Below the pieces are notes generated by a model. It saw only the letters and a program-made list of their open reading frames with translations. It ran no database searches and had not been told where the DNA came from. Positions 6,091 to 41,015 of a DNA stretch of 45,080 nt are shown here, piece after piece. Both the position numbers and the translations under genes were made by a program. The DNA is from a virus, in the IMG/VR virus record IMGVR_UViG_2531839420_000002, positions 67,685 to 112,764 of that record; one strand, 5' to 3'. Position 1 is the first letter of the stretch. Each line of letters begins with the position of its first letter.

Positions 6091-6135
6091 AAGTCAGCGC
6101 TGACTATTGCTTGACCGGAAAGGGGTGCGTATAGT
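6091..6135 (+). promoter_or_regulatory. Operator AAGTCAGCGCTGACTA abutting a sigma70-type promoter
   Basis: Operator 6091-6106; TTGCTT(6107)-N17-TATAGT(6130). Confidence 0.65.
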
Positions 6136-6184
6136 GTCCCCATGACAAGCGTAATAAGCGCGAAACGGAACGGAGATAGACGAC

Positions 6185-12508: not shown

Positions 12509-12552
12509 AAATCAGTTCTGACTTGATATTTAATCCCAAGCAACGCTATATT
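12509..12552 (+). promoter_or_regulatory. Operator overlapping promoter
   Basis: AAATCAGTTCTGACTT; TTGATA-N18-TATATT. Confidence 0.6.
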
Positions 12553-12597
12553 CCCCCGTGAGCGCGACACAGCGCCCCAATGAACGGAGATAGACCC

Positions 12598-15795: not shown

Positions 15796-15843
15796 CCACC
15801 GGGAGGGGCCTTGCGGCCCCTCCCCTTCTCGAAAGGATAGACC

Positions 15844-18725: not shown

Positions 18726-18769
18726 GAGAGACCAAACGATGAATGTTGCCCAGAGTGCCGGTGTCTCTC
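18726..18769 (+). ncRNA. TIGR-like stem-loop guide unit 1
   Basis: GAGAGAC/GTCTCTC stem enclosing CCA-AACGATGAA-TGTTGCCCA-GAGTGCCGG-TG. Confidence 0.85.
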
Positions 18770-19351: not shown

Positions 19352-19520
19352 AGGTCTTTGGAGACCAAGCACAGAATGTTGCCCAGCACCATCGCGTCTC
19401 TAAAGACCTTCAGATTTTGAACCAGTAGCGCATTGTTACCCAAGGATGACGTGTTCGACCAATAGTGACGCGCTGCTACGGATTTCATGTTACCCAGAAA
19501 CCGAGTGCGGCGCGTCACTA
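19352..19520 (+). ncRNA. TIGR-like stem-loop guide units 2-4
   Basis: Units at 19352-19409, 19417-19458 and 19463-19520; each stem encloses CYA-N9-TGTTRCCCA-N9-YG. Confidence 0.88.
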
Positions 19521-19538
19521 CAGAACGGAGATAGATCA

Positions 19539-20255
19539 ATGAACCTGAGTGATCTCGTTATTCAGATCCAACTCACCTACCGCCAGCGCAAGCAGCTCCA
19601 GATGGCGCAGAACCGTATCGTTCTTCAGCTCAAGGCGCTCGCTCGCGCCGCCGTGGATGGTGACAAGGATCGTGCCGGCGTGATCGTCGATCGACTGATC
19701 GCCAACAAGGTCCAGAAGGCCGAGGACGTGGAAATCGCCGTGGGTCTGTCACAGAATTACGGTGCCCTGTTTGCTGCGCACGACGGCATCGCGAGCGACT
19801 GCGCCAAGCTTGGCAAGGAGCTGGAGAAGCTGGCGAAGAAACTCCCGGTTGCCGAATGGGTCGCCACTCAGCGCGGCGTTGGCATGACCAATCTCGCCAA
19901 TATCATCGGCGAGGCGGGCGACCTGGCCAACTACAACAATCCCGCCAAGCTGTGGAAGCGCATGGGGCTTGCGGTGATCGGGACCGAGCGACAGCGTAAG
20001 GTGGCCGACGCCGAAGCGGCGCTCGTTCATGGCTACAACCCCGTCCGGCGCTCGGTCATGTGGAATGTCGGCACCTGCATCATCAAGGCCGGTGGCGCCC
20101 TTAAGACGCTTTACGACGAGCGCAAGGTCTACGAGGCCGGCAAGAGCCCGGATATCACCAAGATGCTGGCCCATCGCCGCGCCCAGCGTTACGTCGAGAA
20201 GCGCGTTTTGCGCGATCTGTGGCGGGCGTGGCGGGGAGAGTTTGCGACGGCATAA
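19539..20255 (+). CDS. Nop/IS110 C-terminal-domain RNA-binding protein lacking a nuclease domain (TasA-like)
   Basis: Coiled coil followed by RGVG..LANIIGEAGDLANYNNPAKLWKRMGL..YNP..R..AHRRAQR..KRVLRDLWRAW; no DEDD RuvC or HNH motif; flanked by guide-like units. Confidence 0.8.
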   Translation: MNLSDLVIQIQLTYRQRKQLQMAQNRIVLQLKALARAAVDGDKDRAGVIVDRLIANKVQKAEDVEIAVGLSQNYGALFAAHDGIASDCAKLGKELEKLAKKLPVAEWVATQRGVGMTNLANIIGEAGDLANYNNPAKLWKRMGLAVIGTERQRKVADAEAALVHGYNPVRRSVMWNVGTCIIKAGGALKTLYDERKVYEAGKSPDITKMLAHRRAQRYVEKRVLRDLWRAWRGEFATA

Positions 20256-20265
20256 GCCGATCGCG

Positions 20266-20506
20266 GGGCGAGACCAGAGAACCCATGTTGCCCACCCCAA
20301 CGGTGTCTCGCCCACAAGTTTCCGACGAAAGTCGGAGGAAGATTGACCAACCAACCCCCGTTCCCCATGCCGAGGCTGTCAATCTTCCATAATTTAGCGA
20401 CCAGACTCGCCATGTTACCCAAAATCAGCGTGTCGCTAATCGTTGTGAAGAGAGTTGCGCCAAAAGGCAAATGTTGCCCAGGGGCCACCTGCGCAACTCT
20501 CTTTAC
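20266..20506 (+). ncRNA. TIGR-like stem-loop guide units 5-8
   Basis: Units at 20266-20313, 20337-20388, 20394-20439 and 20445-20506; same CCA-N9-YGTTNCCCA-N9-TG core with different stems; GAAA hairpin at 20321-20336. Confidence 0.88.
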
Positions 20507-29949: not shown

Positions 29950-30870
29950 GTGCAGGAATATCTCAACCTTCTTAGTCAGGTTCTCAGTTCTGGCACCGAG
30001 AAAGACGACCGCACCGGCACCGGCACCCGGTCTGTATTCGGCGCTCAGATGCGCTTTCGGCTCTACAATGGCTTCCCGCTGCTGACCACCAAGAAGATCC
30101 ACTGGAAGTCGGTCGTTCATGAGCTGCTGTGGTTCATCAAGGGCGACACCAACATCGCCTATCTGAAGGAGAATGGCGTCTCGATTTGGGACGAATGGGC
30201 CGATGAGAACGGCGATCTGGGGCCGATTTACGGTGAACAGTGGCGCTCCTGGCCAGCATATCCGCTCGATCCAATGGGGCGCTTGAGCATCGACCAACTT
30301 GGTGACGCCATTCACACGTTGCGCACCAATCCCGACAGTCGGCGTATCATTATCAACGCCTGGAATGTCGGCAGCCTGCATGAGATGGCTCTGGCGCCGT
30401 GTCACTGTCTGTTTCAGTTCAACAGCCGACCCATTGCGCATTATCATCGCGTGTCTCTTGGCGCCGGCCTGGGCGTTGTCATGCCCACTGGTGCGTCGCC
30501 CGACGAGGAAGCGAATATTCTCGACGAAGCTGGCATTCCGCGGCGGATGCTGGATCTCCAGCTCTACCAGCGCTCGGCGGATCTGTTCCTCGGCGTGCCG
30601 TTTAACATCGCTTCCTACTCGCTGTTGCTGTTGATGGTGGCCCAGGTTACGGGGCACACGCCAGGCGAATTCGTGTGGACCGGCGGCGACGTGCATCTTT
30701 ATCTGAACCATTTCGAGCAGGCTCGCGAACAGATCGAGCGGCTGCCTCTCTTTCTTCCCGACCTGCGCCTGAACCCCAAGGTTCGCGAGATCGACGATTT
30801 CAAGTTCGAGGATATCACGCTGATCGGCTACGACCCGCATCCGGCAATCAAGGCGCCGGTAGCGGTCTGA
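29950..30870 (+). CDS. thyA: Thymidylate synthase
   Basis: [22 protein letters not shown] and [14 protein letters not shown]. Confidence 0.97.
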
Positions 30871-32446: not shown

Positions 32447-33054
32447 TGCTTGGATTGATCGGCGCGCATCGCACCGGGAAGACCACCCTCGCTCGCGAGT
32501 ATGCAGCCAGGTCTGGTCTTCTCTTTATTACCTCTAGCTCGACCGCAGTTCACGCCGAACTTGGCATCCCGATGGACGCCGATCTCGATATGCAAACCCG
32601 CCTGAAGGTTCAACACGCGATCCTCGATAGAGCCGAAGAAGATATTCACCGGGCGTCTGGCCCCTTTGTCAGCGACCGGACTCCTCTCGACATGGCGGCG
32701 TATCTGCTGGCTGACGTTGGGCGCTCTAACGTCAGCCGGGTCGAGATCGACGCGGCAATGAAGTATGTCGAGCGCTGCTACGACATGACCAACACCTACT
32801 TCTTCCGCTTGGTTCTGGTGTCGCCCGGCATCCCTTATGTGGTTGAGGAAGGGAAGCCTCCGTTCAATGTCGCCTATCAGGAGCACCATCACGCCCTGGT
32901 ATCCGGCCTCGCCTACGACGAGCGCTGCGAAGTCAGCCTGGATGTGCTCCCGCGCGATTGCCTCAGTCTCAAGGAGCGTCTGAGCAGTCTGGACGAAATC
33001 GCCAAGGACGTTTCGAAGGAGATCGCCAAGGATCGCAATCTCTATTTGCACTGA
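32446..33054 (+). CDS. P-loop nucleotide kinase-like protein (NadR/AAA_28 type)
   Basis: GAHRTGKTT and SDRTPLD. Confidence 0.8.
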   Translation: MLGLIGAHRTGKTTLAREYAARSGLLFITSSSTAVHAELGIPMDADLDMQTRLKVQHAILDRAEEDIHRASGPFVSDRTPLDMAAYLLADVGRSNVSRVEIDAAMKYVERCYDMTNTYFFRLVLVSPGIPYVVEEGKPPFNVAYQEHHHALVSGLAYDERCEVSLDVLPRDCLSLKERLSSLDEIAKDVSKEIAKDRNLYLH

Positions 33055-33153
33055 TCGGCAAAAGCGGGTGGTCAAGTCAAAATTGACTAGACTGCCCGCA
33101 CTTCTCGACGCTATATTTCCATTAGAGAACAACGCACAAGCGAGGAGATAGAC

Positions 33154-34004: not shown

Positions 34005-34456
34005 TGGAACCCCGGCTCCCCACCCTGAAGGAGGAACTCGACCGTAAAGTTCTCGATGCGGTCGAGGCAATTCTCTGGCGCCTGGAGTCGAAGCAGATCA
34101 ACCAGGCACAGGCGTCCGAAGCCGCCAACGCTCTGTTCACGGCCACCGCCGGTCTGATCGACCGCGAAGTGCTCAATGTGATGTGCGCCATTCGCGACCA
34201 TGACGAGACCGAGTATGTCGAGCGCGAGGTGCTAACCAAGCCGGGAGCGATGGGGACGGGCGTGACCATCATCGAGCGTCCGGTTGGTGCCGCCGTCGTG
34301 CGGCTCATGTCGAAGCTGGGGCATGACGGCTCTTTTGGCGTGAACAAAATCTACAGGTTCGATGACGCTCAGCATCCAGCGGAGGCGGCCTTCGATGCGA
34401 AGACCGCCTTGTTGAACCGAATGAAAACCCTTGGCTGGAGCCCGCTATGTCCCTGA
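34001..34456 (+). CDS. Hypothetical protein
   Basis: Coupled ORF, 151 aa. Confidence 0.65.
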   Translation: MMEPRLPTLKEELDRKVLDAVEAILWRLESKQINQAQASEAANALFTATAGLIDREVLNVMCAIRDHDETEYVEREVLTKPGAMGTGVTIIERPVGAAVVRLMSKLGHDGSFGVNKIYRFDDAQHPAEAAFDAKTALLNRMKTLGWSPLCP

Positions 34457-35004
34457 TCACCTTCCTTGATACCGAAACCACCGGGCTGGAGCAGTCGGAA
34501 GGTCATCGCCTGGTCGAGGTCTGCATGAGGGTCTACGACCTCGACACTCGGAAGCTTCGGGTGAACTTCGTTCAGAGGATCAACCCGGAGCGCTCGATCG
34601 CGGCTGCTGCCCAGGCGGTTCACGGCATCAGCCTCGCTGAGCTGGCTGGCGAACCGACATGGCCGGCGGTCGCACCGAAGGTTCACAAGATCCTCAGCTC
34701 TTCGGCCTGGGCGGTCGCCCACAATGCGGCGTTCGACATGCCATTCGTCGGGCTTGAGTTGGTTCGCATCGGCATGACCTGCCCGTCGGTGAACGTGTTC
34801 TGCACGATGGAAGAGGGCCGCTGGGCCACGCCGAATGGAAAACTCCCGAGCCTGAAGGAGCTGTGCTTCGCCTGCGACGTTCCCTACGACCCATCCAAGG
34901 CCCACGCCGCCGAGTATGACGTGGATTGTATGGCTCAGTCCTTTTGGCGCGGTCTCGATTGGGGGTTTTTCTCGATCGGTGCAGAGGAAAGGGAAGCGGC
35001 ATGA
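34447..35004 (+). CDS. DEDDh 3'-5' exonuclease (DnaQ/epsilon-like)
   Basis: LDTETTG, AHNAAFD and AHAAEYD. Confidence 0.92.
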   Translation: MSLITFLDTETTGLEQSEGHRLVEVCMRVYDLDTRKLRVNFVQRINPERSIAAAAQAVHGISLAELAGEPTWPAVAPKVHKILSSSAWAVAHNAAFDMPFVGLELVRIGMTCPSVNVFCTMEEGRWATPNGKLPSLKELCFACDVPYDPSKAHAAEYDVDCMAQSFWRGLDWGFFSIGAEEREAA

Positions 35005-35204: not shown

Positions 35205-35653
35205 AGCACGATCCAGAGTTGGCGAACGAATTGCGTGAGCTTGCCAAGTTGAAGCAGCAACTTGGCCAAGAGGACGAGGCTGTTCTCTTAAACAGGTTGG
35301 CTGGCATGGCCGACACGGAACCTTCGATCTCTTTTCACGAGCGAATTAAGAGCGCTCTCTGCATTGGTCGAAACGTTCCAACCTACAACAGGATCGTTCT
35401 CGGACGGAACGAGAGTTTGCGCGGCAGTCTCTACCTGGGGTGGGTTCTCGTGCCTTTTTGGCTGCCAACTTCGTTACTCCAGATTATCGCCCCGCCGCTC
35501 ATTGAGATCCTCTCGGCCAGCGTCGCGATAGTCGCCGGCGTTTTCGCCTGGTTGATGGTGCAGGTAATGCTGCTAGTCGCCGCTCCGCTGGGCATGGTGC
35601 GTCGGGGGAACGCAGGCGAACTTGCAGACGAAGATGACTTTTCCGCTGCGTGA
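35201..35653 (+). CDS. Predicted membrane protein
   Basis: ATGA-coupled start; C-terminal hydrophobic segments. Confidence 0.6.
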   Translation: MKHDPELANELRELAKLKQQLGQEDEAVLLNRLAGMADTEPSISFHERIKSALCIGRNVPTYNRIVLGRNESLRGSLYLGWVLVPFWLPTSLLQIIAPPLIEILSASVAIVAGVFAWLMVQVMLLVAAPLGMVRRGNAGELADEDDFSAA

Positions 35654-35665
35654 CCGGGTTGGGCC

Positions 35666-35674
35666 TGTTATAAT
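35666..35674 (+). promoter_or_regulatory. Extended -10 promoter TGTTATAAT
   Basis: Consensus TGnTATAAT; no ORF between it and the terminator. Confidence 0.7.
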
Positions 35675-35679
35675 AATAG

Positions 35680-35758
35680 GGTCTATCTCTGGTTTGTTGC
35701 GAGCAAGCAGCGAGTCAGCACCTCAGCCCCGCCGATAATTCGGCGGGGCTTTCTTTTT
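35680..35758 (+). ncRNA. Candidate ~80-nt trans-acting sRNA
   Basis: Bounded by the extended -10 and an intrinsic terminator; 5' end GGTCTATCTCTGGTT is complementary to the GGAGATAGAC RBS motif. Confidence 0.65.
35725..35758 (+). terminator. Strong intrinsic terminator
   Basis: AGCCCCGCCGA-TAAT-TCGGCGGGGCT-TTCTTTTT. Confidence 0.85.
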
Positions 35759-35902
35759 GCCCCCGTTCTTTCCCGCCCCAACAGTCCCCGCAATCGTGCC
35801 CAGATGAGCAACAGAGCCCCAAAGCCCAAAGGGCGGGGAAAACACCCCTCCCCCTTTCCTGAAGCGCTCAAAGCCCCAGAAATCAGACCGGGCGGCATAG
35901 TT

Positions 35903-35980
35903 AAGTCAGCATTGATTTTCCCGTTGCGTGGCTCCCTTCATCCCGCTATGTTCGCTTTATCAACAAGTCAACGATGACTT
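35903..35980. promoter_or_regulatory. Two operator copies before the next operon
   Basis: AAGTCAGCATTGATTT (35903) and AAGTCAACGATGACTT (35965). Confidence 0.7.
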
Positions 35981-36003
35981 GCGAAAGAACAGGAGATAGA
36001 CAC

Positions 36004-36390
36004 ATGAACGTGGTTCGCGCGCGGCTCATTCTGACCCCCGACGCCCAGAAGACCAAGGATCTGTTCGTCGCCGTGCGCGACGCGGTTCGCGATCTGATCG
36101 TCAGCGATCTGCCTGACGAAATTGTTCTCGGCAACTTTTTCAGCTTCGCTTTCGGCCCCTTCGCGAACGCCCAGAACAAGGCTCACGTCGCCGCCGTCGA
36201 GCTGTTCAACCGCGGCTCGGTCACTCTCGACCTGAGTGCCGAACAGTTCGTCGATCTGCTGATCGAACTCGCCGGCAAGCCGCTGGCCATCACCGAGGTT
36301 TCCTGGGTCGAAGACGACAATGCCTGCGAGGGCTGCGAGCAGCGGCGTAAGCCGCACACCTCCATCAATAACCAAGAGGTAGACCCGTGA
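36004..36390 (+). CDS. Hypothetical protein
   Basis: ATG 36004 after AGGAGATAGAC. Confidence 0.65.
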   Translation: MNVVRARLILTPDAQKTKDLFVAVRDAVRDLIVSDLPDEIVLGNFFSFAFGPFANAQNKAHVAAVELFNRGSVTLDLSAEQFVDLLIELAGKPLAITEVSWVEDDNACEGCEQRRKPHTSINNQEVDP

Positions 36391-40929: not shown

Positions 40930-41015
40930 TTCGCGAATAAGCGTAGCGCCGCCCGACCCGCCAGGGACCGGGGCGCTACGCTCAATCATCAAAGAACACG
41001 GAACGGAGATAGACA

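Follow-up and report, generated by a model that had tools for sequence, protein, structure and literature searches.

Small RNAs (sRNAs) that pair over the Shine-Dalgarno (SD) sequence block binding of the 30S subunit. GcvB, a host global regulator of amino-acid transport, pairs a G/U-rich seed with C/A-rich leaders. In the accessible part of its description, AbcR1 of Agrobacterium, Sinorhizobium and Brucella is an Hfq-dependent, multi-target anti-SD sRNA (PMC4152367). Phages also encode antisense RNAs that block the ribosome-binding site (RBS): according to the accessible part of one review, c4 of the phage-plasmids P1/P7, sar of P22 and OOP/aQ of lambda each act on one transcript (ant, cII and Q), mostly adjoining their own gene, and c4 sets P1/P7 heteroimmunity by its sequence (PMC12197685). 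The same part describes VpdS of VP882 and PreS of lambda as phage trans-acting sRNAs that act on host RNAs or Hfq and favour lytic growth, and describes no common leader tag on phage genes for them (PMC12197685). The accessible parts of PMC9928086 and PMC11652158 do not describe what keeps SSU5-like phage-plasmids silent in the plasmid state. A literature search whose coverage lay largely outside subscription journals and supplements found no published description of a multi-target RNA of this kind in SSU5-like elements.

We analysed a window of 45,080 nucleotides (positions 67685–112764 of G000:C60, an element of 112,764 bp, hereafter C60); coordinates are those of the window unless C60 is named. 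The segment 35680–35759 likely encodes a trans-acting sRNA whose exposed 5′ end would pair with the GAGAUAGAC signature of 17–18 of the element's own genes and would block their translation together. Like AbcR1, the candidate is trans-encoded, has an alphaproteobacterial-type host and would place a single-stranded seed over the SD regions of many mRNAs. AbcR1, as far as the accessible part of the paper describes it, is encoded on the chromosome, recognises its targets by generic UCCC anti-SD motifs and regulates host transporters (PMC4152367), whereas the window's unit is phage-encoded and would read a tag of SD plus spacer that is private to the phage's own genes and changes between phage lineages. 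A c4-type RNA lies directly upstream of a single antirepressor target, whereas the 17–18 predicted targets here are dispersed over ~110 kb and include no recognised antirepressor; the gene after the unit (36004) has no Pfam or PHROG match. The unit differs from GcvB in pairing over the SD and spacer, and the two share no sequence match. A likeness to GcvB is seen in the relatives G441, G437, G440 and G442: the seeds at the ends of their units are rich in G/U and match leader motifs that are rich in C/A and lie at about −17 to −35. Searches with Rfam 15 families (including AbcR/alpha-r, GcvB, c4 and Spot 42) gave no match at the gathering threshold in the window (best 20.1 bits, versus 80 for Spot 42) and none in sets of 7 and 3 related loci.

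The first five called genes of C60 recur at its end, which fits a circle of about 110 kb. Its genes include repA, parA, an integrase-family recombinase, cobT/cobS, dnaE, ssb, recA, sbcCD, RNR, thyA and head-tail genes, and its closest named relatives, at ~40–45% identity, are Rhizobium phage RHEph10 and Methylobacterium, Acinetobacter and SSU5-type phage-plasmids. Judged by a size of ~100–120 kb and by the repA, parA, cobT/cobS, dnaE, recA, sbcCD and siphovirus head-tail genes that it has in common with SSU5-like records, C60 is an SSU5/RHEph10-like phage-plasmid. Phage-type cobT had no match among 82 family genomes, and a match in G115 was set aside because G115 is not a relative. The host genome encodes Hfq. 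Separately, four TGCATCCGATGTTC copies lie at 639–727, directly past the end of repA, and form an iteron-like origin candidate.

The 35666–35759 unit and its matching leaders

The unit lies on the plus strand and opens with a predicted promoter, an extended −10 TGTTATAAT at 35666–35674 without a good −35; TGnTATAAT occurs three times on C60, one of them here. A G-run follows (35679–35681; GGGTCTATCTCTGG begins at 35679), and the RNA is predicted to start at about 35680. A promoter scan chose a weaker alternative −10, AATAAT at 35672–35677, whose use would shorten the seed. The predicted 5′ seed GGUCUAUCUCU (35680–35690) is complementary to the SD plus spacer of the targets, and its nucleotides 4–9 (35683–35688) are predicted to be unpaired (>0.9). 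It runs into a predicted 12-bp hairpin with several G-U pairs (35689–35718), whose U/G-rich 5′ arm could lengthen the pairing into A/C-rich leaders, and is followed by an intrinsic-terminator-like element (35725–35759) made of an 11-bp stem (35725–35750) and a T-rich tail. No ORF of at least 13 aa starting on the opposite strand was found inside the unit. The sequence-only reading had proposed an ORF-less ~80-nt unit between an extended −10 and a strong terminator, and all of these elements are present where it placed them. By sequence signals the locus thus has the promoter and intrinsic terminator around an ORF-free unit of 50–200 nt that mark the sRNA class, and by prediction it has a single-stranded seed complementary to the initiation regions of several distant mRNAs.

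The motif (G)GAGATAGAC lies ahead of 17 of the 162 starts called on C60 with a purpose-written simple caller (c14, c114 and the like are that caller's gene numbers). In the host 4 of 2986 starts have it, and in 29 relatives taken together 4 of 3950. The pattern was written from C60, and adding one variant raises the C60 count to 18 genes. Outside start regions, the sole antisense copy on C60 is the 35666–35759 unit. The core GGAGATAGA occurs six times in the window against 0.22 expected, a number reached in 0 of 100 shuffles; all ten C60 copies stand directly before a called start, and in an unbiased count it is among the commonest 9-mers upstream of C60 starts. Its density is 8.9 per 100 kb on C60 and 0.41 in the remaining contigs. 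SD pairing was considered and rejected as the source of ATAGAC, since the host 16S tail is the standard GGAUCACCUCCUUUC; the earlier claim that ATAGAC exceeds what SD pairing needs is thereby upheld.

Eight motif sites, all on the plus strand, had been listed before and all were found at the same positions. They precede a cobS-like AAA gene (6169–6181; ATG 6185; palindrome at 6091), the conserved gene c114 upstream of ssb (12583–12597; GTG 12598; palindrome at 12509), a recA/uvsX-like gene with a partial motif (15836–15843; ATG 15844), an IS110-related, Tas-like gene (19524–19536; ATG 19539), an Nmad5 gene (33144–33153; ATG 33154; palindrome at 33074), a gene without assigned function (35988–36001; ATG 36004; palindromes at 35903 and 35965), an internal gene with a wobble variant (36370–36386; GTG 36387) and a small gene without assigned function (41002–41014; ATG 41016). 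That list was incomplete, since ten further motif genes lie on C60 beyond the window: c14, c16, c41, a dNMP kinase gene, c51, the head scaffold gene, two tail-region genes, c94 (before a helicase gene) and a ligase gene. The most consistent predicted target is c14 (328 aa; G000:C60:5847–6833), which is present in 27 of 30 elements, usually directly after dnaQ, and has no Pfam match and no named Atlas family. The description of the targets as operon-leading fits 13 of the 18; the other five start at most 33 nt after the upstream gene.

The tagged IS110-related gene (19539–20255) matches PDB 9mty (E 7e-5). Dual-spacer repeat units (CCA-N-ATGTTGCCCA-N) lie in stem-loops around it at 18728–18767, 19361–19520 and 20270–20506, and the gene and its flanking repeats together resemble a TIGR-Tas system.

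Chance tests, palindromes and a second unit

The complementarity of the unit to the leaders is not a product of chance. Its best 10-nt window pairs with 11 genes when at most one G-U pair is allowed, and the maximum in 5000 dinucleotide shuffles was 6. Among all 46-nt C60 windows outside start regions, 11 was reached only in two windows covering the unit, and the next best value was 6. The 13 strongest duplexes among the 162 C60 starts all involve motif genes and all arise from the RNA 5′ end; −18 kcal/mol was passed at 22 of 162 C60 starts versus 115 of 2986 host starts. Energies were calculated with a purpose-written routine (r=0.83 to RNAduplex); GC content and cis overlaps confounded its raw version, which was left out for relatives. 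Host mRNAs were rejected as the main target set, their 4 motif starts in 2986 being the rate seen in unrelated elements.

A wobble tally from the motif pattern was discarded as circular, since the pattern admitted only wobble variants, and an 11-nt query allowing any two mismatches was used instead. It matched 14 of 162 genes, all at −13 to −10; 15 of the 22 substitutions were G-U compatible, and six of the other seven were C>A or C>G at the duplex edge. A stronger SD would likewise favour the A>G changes, which confounds the wobble reading. Extension of the pairing into the hairpin arm was slightly better on motif genes (p 0.04) and did not exceed that of shuffled arms (31/200); beyond base composition it is not significant.

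A palindrome, AAGTCA-N4-TGACTT, has about 37 intergenic copies on C60 (e.g., at 6091, 25809, 35903 and 35965), and similar palindromes occur in most relatives. A loose copy lies within 130 bp of 10 of the 18 motif genes versus 29 of the 144 others (p 0.002), or, for genes with a gap of at least 40 nt only, 8 of 13 versus 21 of 56. The promoter at 35666 has no strong copy; its best score is 5.1–5.5 bits at 35625, compared with a median of 23.

An unbiased antisense-to-leader scan found a second anti-RBS unit on C60 outside the window, at ~32773–32896 (the unit itself at ~32820–32896), before the presumed terS. Its seed adjoins its terminator and matches GAACGGAACGGAG leaders, including that of cobS, in a motif that overlaps that of the 35666 unit; its promoter contains TTGACA and overlaps a 27-bit palindrome copy. 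Possibly it is a late-operon leader that ends at a terminator and also serves as an sRNA. Units before terS are rare in related loci (9 of 80 with terminator-like sites), and a 16-nt match of the C60 pre-terS unit in L188 was rejected because it lies inside a coding region. With two units covering overlapping motifs, the term "master" sRNA in the sequence-only reading was an overstatement.

Units in related phage-plasmids

The searches run found no sequence homologue of the 35666 unit. Among 120 loci inspected by eye for the pattern TATAAT-N4-8-GGTCTATCTC in viral contigs (37 of 64 parts), no matching unit was present. A motif-plus-start scan gave two or three loose copies in 6 of 120 loci, a seed-plus-arm pattern gave seven loci, none with promoter and terminator, and at the DNA level 401 genomes of the class yielded terminator-hairpin matches only. 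Retention of the motif in relatives that lack the sRNA, which would have spoken against the proposal, did not arise: relatives carry 0–1 such starts.

Relatives were compared by position and not by alignment, and covariation is argued on position, with the dnaQ-like exonuclease gene (34447–35004, plus strand) as the synteny anchor. The set comprised 40 loci (46 examined plus our own, minus six near-duplicates and one short locus). A terminator-bounded non-coding unit lies within 2 kb after dnaQ in 14 of these, and 26 have no unit there. Own leaders ranked first of 40 for 4 of the 14 post-dnaQ units and for 1 of the 45 remaining terminator-bounded units. In this energy test, which is noisy, the window's unit came fourth of 40.

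Against the leaders of 30 elements with whole or near-whole records, the window's unit ranked its own element first (6.8% versus at most 2.1%). In a 10-mer test on these records, 22 of 202 units ranked their own element first, compared with 6.7 expected, and several of the 22 are artefacts: the first ranks of G436 59518, G440 43549, G449 70356 and G444 14467 were rejected as palindromes or overlaps with a real leader. The window's unit had the second-highest gene count, tied with one artefact. Among ten post-dnaQ units, those of C60, G437, G440 and G441 ranked their own element first and those of G429 and G442 second (6 of 10 in the top two), and those of G432, ANB28, G443 and G444 showed no preference for own leaders. 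These fractions are inflated by selection, because six of the ten whole records were chosen when a promising unit in them was already known. The post-dnaQ seeds differ wholly between elements, each following its own leader motif: CACTCACAC occurs in 24 of 121 G437 leaders, ACACACAAACA in 22 of 118 G441 leaders and ACACACATAGA in 13 of 110 G440 leaders, each with a mean of 1–2% in other elements. In G429, the closest relative, a unit is present at each of the two positions occupied on C60 (post-dnaQ and pre-terS).

When orthologous leaders were swapped, the own leader of c14 ranked 1, 1, 1, 2, 3, 6, 7, 8 and 13 of 27. For cobS, the own leader was first in C60, G440 and G441 and 26th of 28 in G429, and most structural genes showed no preference for their own unit. 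The units of relatives often match the same orthologues (cobS, c14 and c114). Rhizobial and Methylobacterium elements have similar units behind the ligase gene, with a strong self-match only in a Shinella plasmid. A further non-coding, terminator-bounded unit is shared, with similar sequence, by G433 (at 30640) and phage nickie (at 100969); it does not match own leaders and is possibly another ncRNA.

SSU5 (JQ965645) has an unannotated toehold-hairpin-terminator unit between the helicase and primase genes (~35760–35860, minus strand). Its 5′ seed pairs with AAACACAUG starts, at two mismatches in 13 of 112 genes, the best including cobS, dnaE, ssb, helicase and sbcD; the c114 leader is also among the targets of SSU5-type units. 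This unit type matches 708 enterobacterial plasmid records. In six aligned records the seed is invariant (6/6) and followed by a hairpin, and 4 of 21 predicted pairs show a compensatory change. A short ORF opposite the unit, before the primase gene, has 23 aa in SSU5, is broken in one record, fused to the primase in another and overlapping elsewhere; cis control of primase is possible but would not be what the records conserve. A covariance model built from six SSU5-type sequences matched only its own source among 24 sources, and neither the window's unit nor others. The two units have in common the 5′ toehold, hairpin and terminator and the predicted targeting of cobS and c114 leaders, a likeness that we treat as analogy rather than as homology.

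Proposed action and alternatives

The reading of the unit as a multi-target antisense RNA is well supported, because the element-wide statistics, the predicted exposure of the seed and the match of the relatives' different seeds to their own leaders all point to it. Transcription from about 35680 would give an ~80-nt RNA that nucleates on AGAUAG by its exposed 5′ toehold, possibly with the help of host Hfq, and the duplex over the SD and spacer would stop 30S loading. Repression is the expected outcome because the predicted duplex covers the SD and ends 0–5 nt from the start codon. Expressed constitutively in the plasmid (lysogenic) state, the RNA may add a second lock to the genes for replication and recombination and to some virion genes (ligase, cobS, c114, recA and scaffold). 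The argument for this timing, a weaker one, is that the palindrome accompanying many of those genes is missing from the unit's promoter.

The same pairing could operate at another time, with the RNA acting in lytic growth to damp or switch off early and middle genes. We consider this rather unlikely. Eight of the 18 targets have no upstream palindrome, the analogous pre-terS and post-ligase units often lie behind one (a strong copy at 3 of 4 and 5 of 14 promoters, respectively), and the palindrome could be repressing or activating, all of which would suit lytic timing; a strong palindrome is missing from the promoters of all ten post-dnaQ units, that of the window among them (palindrome discovery being unreliable in several elements), and a consensus extended −10 should be readable by host polymerase without a phage factor. 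That the motif is simply a strong, duplicated leader style of the element, and the unit a by-product (an inverted leader or a DNA-level site) with no pairing function, seems quite improbable. Motif leaders are A/C-rich (0.63 versus 0.52), as in ordinary unstructured enhancers, the motifs of G437 and G441 resemble repeated promoter-leader modules, and the opposite strand in SSU5 has the short ORF before primase. However, such a by-product leaves unexplained why at least seven versions, unrelated in sequence, each have a single antisense copy flanked by a −10 box and a terminator; on C60 no ORF lies behind the motif copy on the opposite strand, and the variable SSU5-type ORF accompanies a seed that does not change.

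A paired RNA could also serve as a guide or activator that brings a phage protein (a nuclease or translation factor) to the tagged mRNAs or stabilises them, favouring phage over host translation. The tagged genes are ones required in large amounts by a phage in lytic growth, hardly any host start has the tag (4/2986), and the conserved targets c14 and c114 have no recognised function; yet the pairing covers the SD itself, and no partner protein is linked to the unit, whose flanking genes vary among relatives. We think this explanation very unlikely. RegA and RegB of T4, both phage RNA-binding proteins, are the model for a motif read by a phage protein, with the complementarity to the unit incidental. 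Protein control of phage initiation regions is on record (in the accessible part of PMC3014915), but a decoy for such a protein would hold the motif in the same sense and not as its complement, and the motifs are wholly different between relatives and still track the seed of each unit; we give this idea hardly any credence.

The phage antisense RNAs covered in the accessible part of the review have either a single switch gene or the host as their target (PMC12197685). If the multi-target antisense reading is true, one phage RNA would recognise a private tag carried by a tenth of the phage's own genes, and these would form a regulon made for that RNA, which is another kind of design. About 700 enterobacterial plasmid records have a unit built in the same way, which is the most accessible case for a test, and orthogonal seed/tag pairs are potential ready-made multi-gene switches. 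We tentatively raise the possibility that SSU5-supergroup phage-plasmids carry a lineage-specific barcode in the RBS regions of their lytic genes, with co-evolving matching small RNAs. Such a genome-wide translation lock may silence both the resident element and superinfecting phages of the same barcode, as a layer of immunity specificity beside the protein repressor.
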